Notes: generated from the letters alone by a model not told the origin. A stretch of 64,000 nt of DNA from Psilocybe cubensis (GCA_017499595.2 CM039007.1:1116001-1180000); one strand, 5' to 3'. Counted from the first letter of the stretch, positions 16,931 to 22,990 are shown. Numbers and translations are program-made.

Positions 16931-17272
16931 ATGGCCCCTTCATACTACGAGTCACTTTCAACGGAGGAGGATTCAGAGGAAAAACTCCTTGCCAACACCG
17001 AAGACCAGCGTTCAGCCACGCACACTGGCATTACCCGGGAATCATCTAACAAATTCAATTATTTGTCCTACATTCTCATTTTCCTGAGCATTGTTGCTTC
17101 AGGGATTAGTCTTACAACTACGCTCACCGCCGTTCGCGCTTCCCGCGCCTATTTTGCGCCTACCGATACTCTGCCACGCCCCAACGTTTTTGTGGGGCTT
17201 CCGAAATACCCTCAAGTTTCAAAACACTCTGAAGTCGGATCGCACATGGATCACTCGCATTCCCGCAACTGA
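16931..17272 (+). CDS. 113-aa single-pass membrane protein with His-rich C-terminus (cluster accessory protein)
   Basis: Acidic N-terminus (YESLSTEEDSEEKLL), one hydrophobic helix, LPRPNVFVGL motif and tail HSEVGSHMDHSHSRN. A GT-AG intron follows the stop codon. Confidence 0.7.
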   Translation: MAPSYYESLSTEEDSEEKLLANTEDQRSATHTGITRESSNKFNYLSYILIFLSIVASGISLTTTLTAVRASRAYFAPTDTLPRPNVFVGLPKYPQVSKHSEVGSHMDHSHSRN

Positions 17273-17454
17273 CGGTAAGAAATTTGGTATGATGAGTGAA
17301 ATTATTCTAATTTCTGGTATAGAGAACAAGAGAAGTGACGAATGAAGAGGACAAGTTGTTCTAGTAATTTCTTGCTTCGACACCATCCAATACGTTCTAA
17401 ATCGAATTTAACACCTTCAATCATGATTGCTATCAGGTTCTCTACTGCTGTGTT

Positions 17455-18136
17455 CTAATTGTCGTAGGTATCCTTATACTGCTCATAGTTACTTCCCATA
17501 TATTCCCATAATTGCTCCCAGTCCGTGCAACGATGTGCAATATCGATTCCGGTGACTGTCTCTACTATCTTTCCATCTGGAGTCCGCTGTTTATGGCTGG
17601 CTGGTTCTAGCGTGAGATCGGCATTGCAGAGAAGTATCTGTCGAAGATAAATGAGACAGTGGTGGACGTGTCCGATATCAAGCATTGTGTAGCCGTCGTT
17701 TTGAGGGTTGGATACCATTGCCATCCTGAGGTAGCGATGAAATGACCGTAAACAGTGCAAACTATGGAAATGGGAGACGAGGTAATGCTTCTGGTCGTCT
17801 GGGTGGTATATGAATCCATCGCCCATCGGTAGTATTGACTCCCATTCCGATTCATTGGAATATAGACCAAATCTCTCGGCTTTTGAAATTGTCAATGTAG
17901 CTGGTTGTATCTGAATTGGGAGTACGGCTTCCGTCTTTGATACTGTTTATGCAATTAGGTCTCAACAAGCGAGGTTATACTAGCAAAAAAATGGGCGTAC
18001 CGGGCTTGAATATTGCCCCAACGTTTAATGAAATGCTAAGTAAGTGCACCGAAAGCGATATAATGAGGGCGACTGAGGCAAATATCACTAGGAGCAGAGG
18101 GACCTTCACCGTGTGCTTCATACCGTGGCTGGTCAT
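17455..18136 (-). CDS. DUF3328/UstYa-like oxidase 1 (2 exons)
   Basis: N-terminal TM helix in exon 1 (MTSHGMKHTVKVPLLLVIFASVALII...). Two HxxHC motifs: FHSLHCL and HVHHCLIYLRQILLCNADLTLEP. C-terminal HRCTDW. Confidence 0.92.
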
Positions 18137-18759
18137 CACTGCAGTCTGAGTAGAATTTTGATAATGAGCTCTCTATATTAATTATTCAACCTATCTTCGA
18201 TCGCGAGCTTCCAAATTGATATGTGCCCGCTGACCTATCTATGGCTTTACATAACTGGAGAAGCTGTTGCCTTGAAAATTAAACAGAATTCATTATATTC
18301 ACCCGTTTTCGCATGTAATCCGAGCTCTCCGTGGGTTATGTCCAGTGGATTACAAGATGTATATGACCTTCAAAGTACTTAAAAATAAACTCTCATTACT
18401 AACCACTTGGTACAAATGATAGAATCACCGCACCTTCCTCAGGTCATGTTCTCTACGTCCAAATTTGTATCAATCCTAGACACGCCGTGTTACATAGTGC
18501 AATATCGTGTGTCTTTTTTGGTCGACCGTTCTACCCGCAACCCTCCCCACGTTGACGCTGTACTCGAGTCCAGGTCTCTATATTTAGACGCCCATGATCC
18601 AGGACATGGCAAACGTCGGAGAAACCAGAGGAAGAGATGGTCTATCGACCGATTTTTGACCGTATTCCCACTATCTAGAGCCTCGTAAAATGTAATTGAT
18701 GGAAAAATTGTTCAATCATTGTACAGAATCGCAGTGCTTGCTTGCCTCAACCAGTGACA

Positions 18760-19472
18760 ATGTGGAATAAACAAGCCCTCCTGCTGTCAATCTGCGTAGC
18801 CTTAAACATTATAAACGTATCGTACCTGGTATTTGCCTGGTTTGAATGGACCGTTGGAGAGAAAACCAAAGAATCCTACTGTCAGTCCACTTTATTACAA
18901 TGTCCTCGCATATATCTATTGTCTGATTTTTTCATCAACCTTCAGCCTACCTCGGCCACGACTATCCTGAGAGTCTACCAATGGGTGTCCAGAAGTCAAT
19001 CATTGTGCCATACGAGGAGAGCGAGATTTATCGCTTTACGGGCATTGAGTCAGATTCTGAGTGGCTTTCGCTTGCTGGCCCAGAGCAAGGATTCGGATAT
19101 TTGAGACTTGGACCACATAATCGCATTTTTGCCGTTTCAATGTTCCACCAAATGCATTGTCTTCGTATCATCAACCTTGCGATGAGCAAAGAACCCATTG
19201 CAACCCCTTCTCACCTACATCACTGTTTTAATTATCTCCGACAAGCAGCACTTTGTGGGGCTGATTTATCACTCGAACCAGGAGACTTTGAAGAGAGAGA
19301 CTTCAGTGACCAAAAGGTTAGTGGATGGCATAAATGCAAGGATTGGAGCCAAGCGTATTCCATCATGGAAAATAATTATGCCCAGTGGAAAGAAGCAGAG
19401 AATGTATGTCCATTCTACCGTTCATACCTGTTCCTTATAGACTGAGGGAGTTTGTAGGGTCACTTGAAATGA
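18760..19472 (+). CDS. DUF3328/UstYa-like oxidase 2 (3 exons)
   Basis: TM helix, then YLGHDYPESLP, FHQMHCL, HLHHCFNYLRQAALCGADLSLEP and HKCKDW. Confidence 0.92.
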
Positions 19473-19523
19473 GTGAGAGTTGGGTACATACTGTAAGATG
19501 TTAATTGCTTTCGACAAAATGCA

Positions 19524-20336: not shown

Positions 20337-20555
20337 TTATAAGCAATCCATTTATTTTTTGGGAACAGCGTATAGGAGAATTGATAACGCGCTACTAATA
20401 TACAAATGATTGGCCAGTATGTGGACTATTGATGATCATTTTTGAAAGCCCATTTCTGTGACTCGTGTCCACCCCCATATTTCTCAAATCTGACCTTGCC
20501 AAAACATTCCACTCAGCATTAATCATATAAGGTATACAAATAACGTCCACACCAT

Positions 20556-20758
20556 CTAGTAGCAAAGTGCTAGACGACGAGCTTCAATGTCTTCAGCATC
20601 ACAGTCCACAATTTCCGCTGCACAAAATAAGTTTTAATTTCTGTGGGGAATATTGTAGACGGAAACATACTATGACCTGCCACAGGTGCAGAGTTTGCCA
20701 TCATGGCGAATACCAAGGCAATGGATGCAAGTTTGCAAAAAATACGAACTGGATACAT
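20556..20758 (-). CDS. 49-aa secreted peptide, candidate RiPP precursor: MYPVRIFCKLASIALVFAMMANSAPVAGHTEIVDCDAEDIEARRLALCY
   Basis: Exon 1 is 20758-20671, then a 53-nt intron GTATGT...TGCAG (20670-20618), then exon 2 at 20617-20556. Signal peptide with a likely ANS/AP cleavage, acidic spacer and dibasic RR. TATTTAA lies about 50 nt upstream. Confidence 0.75.
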
Positions 20759-21290
20759 AACCACTAGTGTAATGTGCGCCGATAGTTGACGGCATCTTAC
20801 TGCATTAAATAGATTCTAAAGTAGAAAGGTAGGAAGTACCAGTCATACATACATGGTATAATGATGCGTTCTTCTATCCAAAATATGCCGGAAAAACTGT
20901 GTTTACAACGGAACCTTGATCACCTTCTATGCAATGGTTTGCCACATGGAGTTTACAGGATTGAAAGAATGTGTTTCTAACAAGCTTCCCTAACAAAGAA
21001 CGAAGCAGCAAGCTATGTCTCGGAAGTTTCTATTTACAGGGTCCACCGGCCATGATACCTGGCCAATCATATTCTTGTTATATATTTTTGACTGAATGAA
21101 AGAACCGCACCCGTAGAAGTCATAGTCACTCTAACTCTCTATTTCTACCGGACAACGGATAAACTTCATTAATAAAGTTCTTTCCTACTAAATTGCTGTT
21201 ATCAAAGGAATAGCTTGTCACTGCTACTCCGATGAAAATCTCTTAGGTGCTTAGAACATCAGATGTACTCTAATCTGAGATAATGGTCGA

Positions 21291-22288
21291 TCAAGAAAGG
21301 ACGGTGACATCAGTCTGCATTTGGACAATGTAGAATCCTAATGTTTTGGGCCACTTTAATCCTGCGCCATGTAGCACGAGAATGGTGTAACATCGATAAC
21401 TCACCGGCCTTTGGCTCAGCACGTTGATCTTGCCAAAAGTCCACATGACATTCCGGGCTATCAGGCGAGCATGCTAATTCAAAGGTGCTGAAGTGATTTG
21501 ACCGACACAGAAATGGGACCAAGTCGCTTCCTCGGTGGTCGAGATGGATAATCCCAAATCTACTTCCTCGTAGTGGGGCGAATTTCCAACTCTTGCCGAT
21601 GTAGCGAGATATTTCGTGTGACATATTGAGGGTCCAAATATCAATTACAGACCCGTTTTGAGCAATGGAAGAAGGGTCAAAAGATGTGGTAAGAGGTGGT
21701 ATTGAGAACGATAGTGAACAATTTTCCATCCCAAAGTCAATATGTCGAAATTGAACAATTGTAGAGGTCTGAGTATACCAATATAACAGTAAGAGTTTTC
21801 AATGTATAAAGAGAGAATGGCAGTATCTACCTCATTCGTGATGACAATGCGACGTGCATCGGGATAGACAGCACCAATCTTAGCTTTCCGGCTCCGTGTT
21901 GTATCTTCCGACATTTGTCGAAGTGGATCATTAGCGTGTAGCTGAAAAGACACCTGGGGAAAATTGAATATTGGTGGAAAAACGTAATCGGAATGCCTTA
22001 GAGCACTCTTAAGATTGACATAGGTGCTCTGGCGACGTAGCGTCCTCCTGGGCTCTTTGGTTTCTGCTTCAGACCTTCCTTGATGAATCCTAATGCGCGT
22101 TGAAGTAGAGAAGACAATGAGCGAAAGCAAGGATGATAGAAAAGTTATGATGTATATGTAAAAAAATAGCGTGTCTGGTTTACAGATCGGTTAGCACTAT
22201 TGTTTCATGTTCCAGTCTCACTATCAGTCTATTTACCGTTCTTGGTCTTGTACCCACACGTGTGAGGTCTTTCGAAAGCGAATTGCAT
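21291..22288 (-). CDS. Membrane-anchored protein with a Cys-containing luminal domain (possibly But2 C-terminal-like), 4 exons
   Basis: Spliced model: MQFAFERPH...TM helix...LRRQSTYVNL...VYPDARRIVITNE/TSTIVQFRHIDFGMENCSL...FSTFELACS...CHVDFWQ...GFYIVQMQTDVTVLS*. Three canonical GT-AG introns. The family name is from recall only. Confidence 0.75.
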
Positions 22289-22509
22289 GCTGACGTTCCG
22301 GACTTTGGTGGTTAGGAGTAGTGAAGTGGTTTATCAAAAATGTTTGGAGAGGTGTATTACAATCTTGTAGTTCTCCGGGGCCTCTATCTAGAGACGCATA
22401 CTCTATTAGATTCTTGGCTTTGTTCTATTTTGGAGGCTTTTCAAACGTATGTTAAAACTTGAGTTCGATTCGGCAAAACACAGCTACATGCTAGAGATAA
22501 AAATATCTA

Positions 22510-22990
22510 TTTATAGGCCGTCCAAGCTCACTGAACTCCTGAAGCGGAGCACCAAACAGACGTCAATGAATTCAGACCAGACGGTAATATATGAGTATTA
22601 TTTCTCCGTGAGTTCCATGCAGTTTATGGTTGTCAATTCGACCGATTTCCAGATTCCTACTGGTATCTACTCGAACATGTTTGGACCTGACGGAGACCCC
22701 ACGGTTGCAAGTGCGCCGTATGTACTCTTTGATACTTTCATATCCATCACTATCACTCAGTTCTATTTGAAAGAATCATGCAAAACTGGACTATCATCGG
22801 CCGATTACACCTTGTCAGAGTGCCAACCTTGGTGATCAACGGTAAAAAGGACATCTCGCAAGACTTCGTTGTTCAGCCATCTTTTGACAGAATCCAGAAG
22901 GTTAAACGGGTCACTTTGGAGAATTCGAGCCATTCTCCGTTTATAGAGGAGACAGAACGGCCCGTGTACATGAAACTCATTTCAATTTAA
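22510..22990 (+). pseudogene. C-terminal remnant of a proline iminopeptidase-like (S33, alpha/beta hydrolase) gene
   Basis: NWTIIGRLHLVRVPTLVINGKKDISQDFVVQP...LENSSHSPFIEE carries the catalytic Asp and His region. No upstream GxSxG exon or start was found, and the frame is disrupted. Confidence 0.65.

Follow-up and report, generated by a model that had tools for sequence, protein, structure and literature searches.

Gene modelling across the window (the whole 64-kb stretch of Psilocybe cubensis DNA analysed here) placed six intact genes between positions 16931 and 22288, accompanied by a broken peptidase gene (Table 1), which bears out the first-pass annotation in its proposal of six packed genes plus a peptidase relic. 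In the predicted models, splice sites are canonical and reading frames are open for all six cluster genes, and a crude Kyte-Doolittle hydropathy scan assigned each of the six products a single hydrophobic segment at or near its N-terminus. No NRPS or PKS is visible in the 64 kb, as had also been claimed, with the longest stop-to-stop frame reaching 382 aa and the ten large frames that were scanned proving to be fungal kinases, ABC1, Pkinase and DUF5648.

Table 1. Coordinates of the cluster genes and of the adjoining relic, counted from the first letter of the window.
Feature	Coordinates	Strand	Product	Basis or description
g1	16931..17272	+	113 aa	ORF, single-pass membrane protein
ustB	18121..18001 / 17942..17455	-	~202 aa, 2 exons	PF11807 and splice model
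ustC	18760..18880 / 18946..19445	+	~204 aa, 2 exons	PF11807 and splice model
ustD	20336..19524	-	one 270-codon frame	PF11807
Small pre-pro-peptide gene	20758..20671 / 20617..20556	-	49 aa, 2 exons	model and homologues
But2-like gene	22288..22238, 22174..21832, 21768..21406, 21337..21291	-	~268 aa, 4 exons	model and relatives
S33-type alpha/beta-hydrolase relic (prolyl aminopeptidase-like)	22604..22990	+	C-terminal part only	

Three of the eight translations matched the Pfam profile PF11807 (UstYa) at 70.5, 58.8 and 57.0 bits (cut-off 25; E 2.4e-19 for ustB, 9.4e-16 for ustC and 3.3e-15 for ustD), a profile check that had been proposed beforehand and that came out positive for all three genes. 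Pairwise identity among them is 25-33%, which points to old, differentiated paralogues and not to a recent tandem array. Both ustB and ustC possess an N-terminal TM anchor and two intact HxxHC motifs, including all four His and both Cys of HxxHC(x)nHxxHC, a double motif described for DUF3328 proteins (PMC12048977, PMC12435403); the 3' end of ustC possibly holds one further intron. The ustD product (TM segment at about residues 35-59) carries the degenerate motifs HxxRC and VxxHC and lacks two of the His, and HxxRC...(L/V)xxHC replaces the double HxxHC in every ustD orthologue as well; subfamily counts place it in a large DUF3328 subfamily without two of the four copper-binding His. All HxxHC His are reported as required for activity in the sole enzyme tested by mutation (PMC12435403). 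The earlier description of three oxidases therefore stands for all three genes as regards family and falls short for ustD, which is without the full double HxxHC.

Two further membrane proteins are encoded beside these enzymes. The g1 product has an acidic N-terminus and a TM segment (about residues 42-68); it also contains the conserved motif L-P-R-P-x-V-F-x-G-L-P and ends in a His-rich tail, which is shorter in the window copy and lacks the last conserved residues of its relatives. It matched no Pfam family and no named Atlas family, and its closest public protein is a Psilocybe cubensis hypothetical protein of equal length (99% identical), with further relatives at 55% and 46%, one of them from P. 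cyanescens. The But2-like protein is of type II; its TM segment covers about residues 20-38, and its predicted luminal beta-sandwich domain (fold model pLDDT 61) bears four invariant Cys. The window protein gave no Pfam match at E up to 0.1, two relatives came close to PF09792 (23.6 bits for P0003 against a cut-off of 24.2; E 0.0067 for the relative in L030), and an Atlas feature search returned 0.96 to But2 clusters with PF09792 in 33% and 15% of their members. Given these profile and feature scores, we prefer to regard the protein as a divergent relative that stays below the gathering threshold.

The small gene precedes ustD by 220 nt, in the same orientation, with a 53-nt phase 1 intron in the predicted splice model (GTATGT...CAG), and its product runs from a signal-like N-terminus through an acidic C-D-A-E-D-I-E stretch and R-R to the five-residue tail L-A-L-C-Y and a stop. 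A search of 16-24 kb gave no further small ORF with a signal peptide and no repeat precursor, and the product is absent from the public protein collection. Searching metagenome loci revealed a homologous 45-codon gene in 13 of the 16 that hold a ustD orthologue, matching in position, strand, and intron place and phase; in loci L001-L003 it was not detectable in the 0.9-2.5 kb preceding ustD. When a profile was made solely from the metagenome copies, its one match in the six-frame window was the window copy, at E 2e-4 (next best 6.3). On this comparison of sequences, the small gene, modelled with 49 codons in two exons, is real, and the earlier suggestion of a tiny precursor gains real support from its conservation.

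Five distinct metagenome variants, six with the window copy, allow the conserved parts to be told apart. All of them possess a signal-like start and an acidic C-D-A-E-D within the pattern V-[D/E]-C-D-A-E-D-[I/M/V]-E, followed by an R-R that never varies and a tail that closes with L-A-L-C-x. Leu-Ala-Leu-Cys are the only invariant core residues, and the peptide has just two Cys, of which one lies in the pro-region and the other in the tail and neither varies. The charged start and hydrophobic run were recovered in all six by a crude hydropathy rule, with sequence that has diverged between the lineages. The window core is four residues shorter than in its relatives, and its last residue is Tyr in the window variant only (L, V, V, F and V in the other five), such that the "...CY" peptide of the first-pass annotation does not generalise and the conserved chemistry cannot be an ether cross-link through Tyr. 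Identity among the five variant types is 90% and 94% in the exons, 82% in the intron and 72% and 80% in the flanks. When the window is compared with the metagenome group, DNA at the small gene can be aligned in exon 2 only, and the peptide of that exon is better conserved than the enzymes (~50% identical). Codon differences among the five variants, counted over non-independent pairs, were 34 synonymous and 55 non-synonymous, which is no strong sign of purifying selection when the small CDS is taken as a whole. A basidiomycete lipopeptide mating pheromone precursor was considered and rejected, as those precursors have a C-terminal CaaX box and no signal peptide and the tail here ends Cys-x-stop behind a signal-like N-terminus.

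Conservation of the wider neighbourhood was evaluated in 33 related loci gathered with the But2-like protein as query, and the synteny check proposed beforehand for the DUF3328 genes, the family at 21.3-22.3 kb and a short peptide was positive, which strengthens the cluster idea. UstYa genes adjoin the But2-like gene in 26 of the 33, including four of the ten distant loci at 29-37% identity (L024, L026, L030 and L033). The L004-L023 group holds the peptidase, the But2-like gene, ustB (51-57% identity), g1, the small gene and ustD with membership as in the window and a rearranged internal order, in which two modules are preserved: ustB tail-to-tail with g1, as in the window (g1 orthologues adjoin the ustB orthologue in L004, L005, L011, L019, L020 and L022), and the small gene, which precedes ustD by about 200 nt. 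Loci L001-L003, the closest group for ustC and ustD, hold the But2-like gene, ustC and ustD; a ustC orthologue (56% identity) occurs only there, and ustD orthologues reach 62-64% there and 48-50% in 13 loci. In its gene content, its three enzymes of one family, the conservation of its members and its small gene with recurring motifs, the locus amounts to a conserved Agaricales cluster of secretory-pathway genes whose closest public proteins come from Psilocybe. A multi-TM gene at 24.0-25.1 kb, probably an unrelated neighbour, is also syntenic, so part of the conservation is plain shared ancestry.

For the function of this cluster, the sequences suggest, with about an even chance of being right, a RiPP-like pathway in which a single-core, Cys-containing precursor would yield a short modified peptide. 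The 49-aa product would enter the ER through its putative signal peptide, the acidic pro-region may serve as the recognition or leader part, and a Golgi Kex2-type protease, a housekeeping enzyme encoded outside the cluster, would cut after the invariant R-R. The C-terminal five to nine residues ending in L-A-L-C-x would then be oxidatively modified by the membrane-anchored UstYa/DUF3328 enzymes, with ustB, and in this genome also ustC, as the probable catalysts, being the bearers of the full copper motif. With half of the copper ligands and its tie to the small gene, ustD is perhaps a substrate-holding or altered-metal partner, and the But2-like protein and His-tailed g1 may be accessory, speculatively in peptide handling and copper supply. 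Among relatives of these enzymes, CctR is established as a binuclear-copper, O2-dependent, dimeric type II membrane protein of Golgi, endosome and vacuole (PMC12435403), and AprY and ApnU are reported likewise (PMC12186524, citing Chiang et al. 2025). Counting against the RiPP-like reading, no transcript was seen (two RNA-like contig sets under the same species label cover the neighbour at 26-28 kb and not the cluster, which is no evidence of silence), L001-L003 have no detectable small gene, and in this genome the peptidase is broken and both the core and the g1 tail are shortened. A bolder and improbable version would make this a new class of fungal ribosomal peptide, with a single-core precursor whose L-A-L-C-x tail is cross-linked via the invariant Cys by a multi-subunit membrane complex that would comprise a canonical binuclear-copper DUF3328 enzyme, a leader-holding "half-site" HxxRC/LxxHC partner, a But2-like beta-sandwich subunit and a His-tailed membrane protein that feeds copper. 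Within that version, copper chemistry might join the Cys to a neighbouring side chain as a thioether, for which Tyr-Cys and Cys-His links in copper proteins are precedents.

Somewhat unlikely, and the rival that survives best, is that the genes form a conserved secretory neighbourhood with no common pathway. The UstYa enzymes would act on another substrate (a non-ribosomal peptide, a secreted protein or a small molecule), and the small gene would encode an independent secreted pro-peptide, of signal, defence or effector-like kind, in which a Cys-Cys disulfide joins pro-region and tail after Kex2 cleavage. The two invariant Cys, one in pro-region and one in tail, fit this, as do the retention of the But2-like gene, ustC and ustD without the small gene in L001-L003 and synteny that reaches a probably unrelated neighbour gene. 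DUF3328 enzymes also act outside RiPP pathways, for example on the non-ribosomal peptide cyclochlorotine (PMC12435403), and Umemura 2020 reported few basidiomycete Kex2-repeat precursors near DUF3328 genes (103/1680, 6.1%) and suggested that cyclisation may be rare there (PMC7329392). Against this, the small gene and ustD have stayed together through internal rearrangement, about 200 nt apart and on one strand in both lineages, and no NRPS or other scaffold gene occurs in the window or in L011, the longest related locus.

Decay in this genome would leave the pathway non-functional or dispensable, a reading we regard as decidedly improbable. Relative to the intact S33-type gene of L011 (PF00561, E 1.9e-15), the relic keeps residues ~196-234 and the last exon, changes frame near 22680 and is missing the first ~195 residues, including the GxSxG nucleophile region; the peptidase gene is intact in the L004-L023 group. 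This truncation and frameshift, the shortened core and the clipped g1 tail would all suit a remnant, as would the position of the cluster between ~8-kb inverted repeats that flank it on both sides and a contig in two DNA runs of the species that joins 16939 to 22218, by which the whole cluster would be gone. The six open frames, canonical splice sites and intact catalytic motifs of ustB and ustC speak against decay, and two other strains carry the cluster with few differences (e.g., 6 letters differ in a contig of 2937 nt that spans 19350-22286). That the small frame is instead a conserved-peptide uORF in the ustD mRNA leader, a translational regulator and not a secreted product, is highly improbable: its consistent place ~200-220 nt upstream on the same strand and a C-terminal part far better conserved than the N-terminal part, as in known regulatory uORF peptides, are outweighed by an N-terminus that still resembles a signal peptide in both lineages despite divergence (charged start, then 12 or more hydrophobic residues in a row), a dibasic site after an acidic stretch as is typical of secretory pro-peptides, and an intron of its own.

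Returning to the RiPP-like pathway, literature searches found no product or precursor described for basidiomycete loci of this kind, in agreement with the earlier statement that no characterised product was known. UstYa/DUF3328 genes are numerous in mushrooms and genome-mining tools call them "fungal-RiPP-like"; mushroom DUF3328 regions flagged by antiSMASH are already known, and this cluster is one more of that sort, with differences. New here is a candidate precursor conserved between genera and linked to one particular enzyme subfamily, which turns the question into a direct experiment with four to six small genes and one short peptide. How this newly recognised family of copper enzymes works is a question on which two further findings bear: a large DUF3328 subfamily that retains only half the copper ligands, and two accessory protein families recurring beside DUF3328 enzymes.

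Set against the dikaritins of Ascomycota (ustiloxin, phomopsin and asperipin-2a), the cluster shares several divergent UstYa/DUF3328 genes, which encode the enzymes that define the class, beside a gene for a putatively secreted precursor with a dibasic site, predicted secretory routing throughout and, in two of its three enzymes, the double HxxHC. It belongs to Basidiomycota and has one core at the extreme C-terminus behind one dibasic site, whereas dikaritin precursors hold tandem repeats between Kex2 sites; it also has no conserved Tyr, no tyrosinase, methyltransferase, P450 or transporter, and different accessory genes, the But2-like and His-tailed membrane proteins, for whose joint occurrence with DUF3328 the literature search found no mention. 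A dikaritin in the strict sense, as had first been proposed, is ruled out by the missing Kex2-separated repeats and by a final residue that varies among Y, L, V and F. With CctR, AprY and ApnU, the three ust proteins share PF11807 and a layout of N-terminal anchor plus luminal helical domain, the type II topology of CctR being matched by one hydrophobic segment near each N-terminus, and ustB and ustC share HxxHC(x)nHxxHC; a TM or signal-like segment in all six products likewise accords with CctR topology as reported (PMC12435403). The difference lies in ustD, which has HxxRC...VxxHC. The small peptide resembles yeast alpha-factor and the fungal KEPs described in PMC7329392 in its signal-like start, acidic spacer, dibasic site and short released peptide, but is single-copy, and its released piece would be the C-terminal five to nine residues with a Cys. 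Calls of "fungal-RiPP-like" by antiSMASH from DUF3328 are routine in Agaricomycetes, e.g., in Termitomyces (PMC11455885), and Pleurotus ostreatus is reported to have 16 UstYa-like genes (PMC8893723); the authors of such calls state that a precursor must be found before a RiPP cluster is named (PMC11455885, PMC8893723). The present locus is of the same kind as those regions, and what sets it apart is a candidate precursor conserved together with one UstYa subfamily.

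Across 16931-22288 of the window we were able to build six intact gene models, in agreement with the compact gene set described in the first-pass annotation, and these run in the order g1, ustB, ustC, ustD, a small gene and a gene for a But2-like membrane protein, followed by a peptidase relic. The window is fungal in character, its GT..AG introns being short and its G+C content near 45%, and a crude hydropathy scan placed one N-terminal hydrophobic segment in every one of the six cluster products. No NRPS or PKS was seen among the window's large frames (longest reading frame 382 aa), as had also been stated from the sequence, while a family scan of the large frames around the cluster region returned fungal-type kinases, ABC1 kinases, a Ser/Thr kinase and DUF5648. 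RNA-like contigs from two sets (X4 and X5) map to 26-28 kb, where the joints 25676/25786 and 25952/26006 show splicing, and leave 16.9-22.4 kb uncovered, which permits no inference on cluster expression either way.

Gene models of the cluster (window positions; exons separated by a slash)
Gene	Position	Strand	Product or structure
g1	16931-17272	+	113 aa
ustB	18121..18001 / 17942..17455	-	2 exons
ustC	18760..18880 / 18946..19445	+	2 exons
ustD	20336..19524	-	
Small gene	20758..20671 / 20617..20556	-	49 aa
But2-like membrane protein	22288..21291	-	four exons

To place these genes among relatives, we used an alignment of the But2-like exon's three relatives from a large protein collection, which, after 260 pattern matches, yielded 33 metagenome loci (L001-L033). 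When these were searched with the window proteins (tblastn), 26 of the 33 proved to have UstYa genes next to the But2-like one, a count to be read knowing that 23 loci (L001-L023) represent some six sequence types and do not count as independent. Several of the loci without a UstYa neighbor (L009, L025, L027, L028, L029, L031 and L032) are short or cut on that side, and among the distant loci (29-37% identity) 4 of 10 had such neighbors. Taking the roughly 16 UstYa genes per mushroom genome given in the available text of PMC8893723, we estimate chance adjacency within 10 kb at the order of one in a hundred. In L004-L023 the order is peptidase, But2-like gene, ustB orthologue (51-57%), g1 orthologue, small gene and ustD orthologue (48-50%), such that the membership of DUF3328 genes, 21.3-22.3 kb family and short peptide, whose synteny the first-pass annotation had proposed checking, is retained relative to the window with a changed internal order. 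Two modules are common to both arrangements: ustB and g1 stand tail-to-tail, and ustD is preceded by the small gene, which shares its strand and lies about 200 nt upstream; L001-L003 contain only But2-like (48-50%), ustC (56%) and ustD (62-64%) genes. A multi-pass membrane protein gene without a Pfam family (24012-25039, forward strand) is also syntenic in the L004-L023 group at 44-55% identity, and because of this part of the cluster's conservation is simple common descent; the gene is probably a plain neighbor, yet it too encodes a membrane protein. Beyond the ustD orthologue, L011 (16978-17962) and L019 (near 508) hold non-coding DNA and then retroelement-like frames, integrase-like by eye, so the cluster's far border is lineage-specific.

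Evaluating the small gene further, we found that its exon 2 could be aligned at the DNA level with the matching place in four loci while the flanks could not, and a combination of pattern search, splice-aware script and profile search recovered it in every locus with a ustD orthologue except L001-L003, 13 of 16 in total (L004, L006-8, L010, L011, L015, L016 and L018-22). All 13 metagenome copies possess a 67-nt first exon, a 56-nt GT..AG phase-1 intron and a 45-codon frame, as compared to an 88-nt first exon and a 53-nt phase-1 intron in the window, with the intron site identical in both at one codon before a conserved Glu. The six peptide variants (five in the loci, one in the window) share a charged start, a long hydrophobic run and then V-[D/E]-C-D-A-E-D-[I/M/V]-E; R-R follows without exception, and the tail closes with L-A-L-C-x-stop, where x is Y, L, V, V, F or V, and the metagenome variants carry four extra residues (D-G-A-H) behind R-R. 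Comparison of the five metagenome types puts identity at 90% and 94% for the exons, 82% for the intron, and 72% and 80% for the 200-nt flanks. A peptide profile built from metagenome copies only matched, among 2,996 six-frame pieces, solely the window's exon 2 (E 2e-4, next best 6.3), and the match fell exactly at the syntenic place. Codon differences (34 synonymous versus 55 non-synonymous, from non-independent pairs and mostly in the signal part) speak against a strong claim of selection. Judging from these comparisons, we take the small gene to be a real, conserved gene encoding a single-core candidate precursor. Queried with the unspliced 62-codon reading, the public protein collection held no 34-109 aa protein sharing three words, whereas the neighboring g1 is annotated there; pattern, profile and signal-peptide scans of L001-3, L024, L026, L030 and L033 gave nothing convincing for the small gene.

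The three DUF3328/UstYa-like genes named from the sequence alone were borne out by PF11807, which matched 3 of the 8 translations scanned at well over the curated cut-off (E 2.4e-19, 9.4e-16 and 3.3e-15). Because their pairwise identity is just 25-33%, ustB, ustC and ustD are old paralogues; this divergence rules out that a single DUF3328 gene was recently duplicated in tandem. Both HxxHC motifs are present in ustB, ustC and their orthologues, and ustD and every one of its orthologues carry HxxRC and (L/V)xxHC. Searching 1.84 billion proteins gave 921 ustD relatives (E up to 0.001), and among the best 150 representatives (P0007-P0156) 93 had HxxRC as motif 1, 66 the HxxRC/LxxHC pair and 23 the canonical HxxHC pair. 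By these counts ustD, the enzyme tied to the small gene, belongs to a large DUF3328 subfamily with half of the copper ligands and is no local oddity. As described in the accessible portion of PMC12435403, the DUF3328 protein CctR is a membrane-anchored homodimer in which a binuclear copper site is built from the HxxHC(x)nHxxHC motif, it requires O2 and electrons, changing a conserved His or Cys to Ala abolishes activity, and AprY and ApnU are reported to behave likewise; the part of PMC12186524 available states the same properties for the UstY family. By analogy with the CctR mutants, HxxRC...LxxHC proteins should have no full binuclear copper site on their own. A sequence search of solved structures gave no match to ustB.

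Two accessory proteins accompany these enzymes. The product of g1 shares 99% identity with a Psilocybe cubensis protein in public records, annotated as hypothetical, and 46% with one from P. cyanescens, which places the organism in the former species or very near to it. It is conserved starting at its first codons and has an acidic N-terminus, a single TM segment, the motif L-P-[R/H]-P-x-[V/I]-F-x-G-L-P and a tail rich in His and Ser that ends D/E-C-K in relatives and is shorter in the window. A Pfam scan and an Atlas search found no known family for g1, and a model of g1 bound to an ustB dimer scored 0.26 against a mark of 0.34, a value that speaks neither for nor against binding. The protein encoded at 21.3-22.3 kb has type II membrane topology and four invariant Cys in its luminal domain, and its similarity to But2 clusters (Atlas score 0.96) marks it as divergently related to the But2 C-terminal domain; Pfam gave no match for the window protein, and its relative P0003, at 23.6 bits, stays under the PF09792 cut-off of 24.2. 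Since the domain model is a beta-sandwich of moderate confidence (pLDDT 61) with 0 Foldseek matches in the PDB at E up to 0.001, we take the fold solely as a beta-sandwich; the best matches were generic beta-sandwich binding domains (Eph ligand-binding domain, CBMs) at TM 0.35-0.41, and a sequence search of solved structures with the But2-like profile gave none. In related loci the But2-like gene adjoins an unbroken gene for an S33-type alpha/beta hydrolase (in L011, PF00561 at E 1.9e-15). The window's counterpart was correctly read as a relic in the first-pass annotation, with the first ~195 residues missing, residues ~196-234 retained with a frame change near 22680 and a last exon at 64% identity.

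Enzyme families, topology hints, conserved membership and a conserved precursor-like gene together form the observed basis for a possible pathway. The small protein would be a pre-pro-peptide cut after R-R by a housekeeping Kex2-type protease, and UstYa enzymes in the lumen of the Golgi or endosome would modify its C-terminal five to nine residues, with ustB (and ustC) as putative catalysts, ustD as a substrate-binding or altered-metal partner, and the But2-like and His-tailed g1 proteins presumably as helpers. The invariant core residues are Leu-Ala-Leu-Cys and, as Tyr is not conserved, the chemistry as judged from the peptides cannot be the Tyr ether link of known dikaritins. The main rival accepts the conserved peptide but makes it an independent secreted pro-peptide with its two invariant Cys in a disulfide, the enzymes acting on something else. 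Two lesser rivals would read the small frame as an upstream ORF regulating ustD, or the cluster as one in decay.

The cluster segment (~11.3-28.8 kb) is flanked by ~8 kb inverted repeats, 92-98% alike (2800-11200 and 28800-33900) and composed of ABC1-kinase and fungal-type kinase (PF17667) genes, with a third copy of the kinase pair in direct orientation at 56-63 kb (56100-63000). Directly upstream of g1, 16300-16900 is repeat-rich, apparently non-coding DNA where many contigs of two DNA runs of the species (X1 and X2) break or diverge (loose ends at 16509, 16540, 16676, 16879 and 16882). One contig in each run joins 16939 to 22218, skipping 5278 nt; it spans 16882-16939 and 22218-~22290 and differs from the window upstream of 16882. 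The depth of this contig is 13 in X1, where the cluster has ~23, and 117 in X2, where the cluster has ~93. Because it runs from g1 codon 3 into intron 1 of the But2-like gene, this junction would remove the whole cluster, and the contig could represent an allele lacking these genes or a remnant at another genomic location.

Such regions of mushroom genomes have already been flagged as 'fungal-RiPP-like' with the precursor explicitly unknown (available text of PMC11455885). In Umemura 2020 (PMC7329392), just 103 of 1680 basidiomycete Kex2-repeat precursors lie near DUF3328 genes, and its Table S2 holds a Kex2-repeat precursor type that includes Psilocybe, with some members near DUF3328; the small gene, having no repeats, would have escaped that screen. 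Within literature coverage that mostly leaves out subscription journals, we found no paper joining But2 with DUF3328, and none of the matches listed linked Psilocybe with UstYa or DUF3328. What is new here is the conserved single-core candidate precursor, its gene's link to the half-site UstYa subfamily, and two recurrent accessory families beside UstYa genes. The observation of the cluster is thus confirmed and its dikaritin-like interpretation partly supported, in that the compartment and enzyme family resemble the ustiloxin-type pathway and synteny is conserved, whereas two defining features of that pathway type fail here, the precursor being without repeats and the Tyr of the core not conserved.
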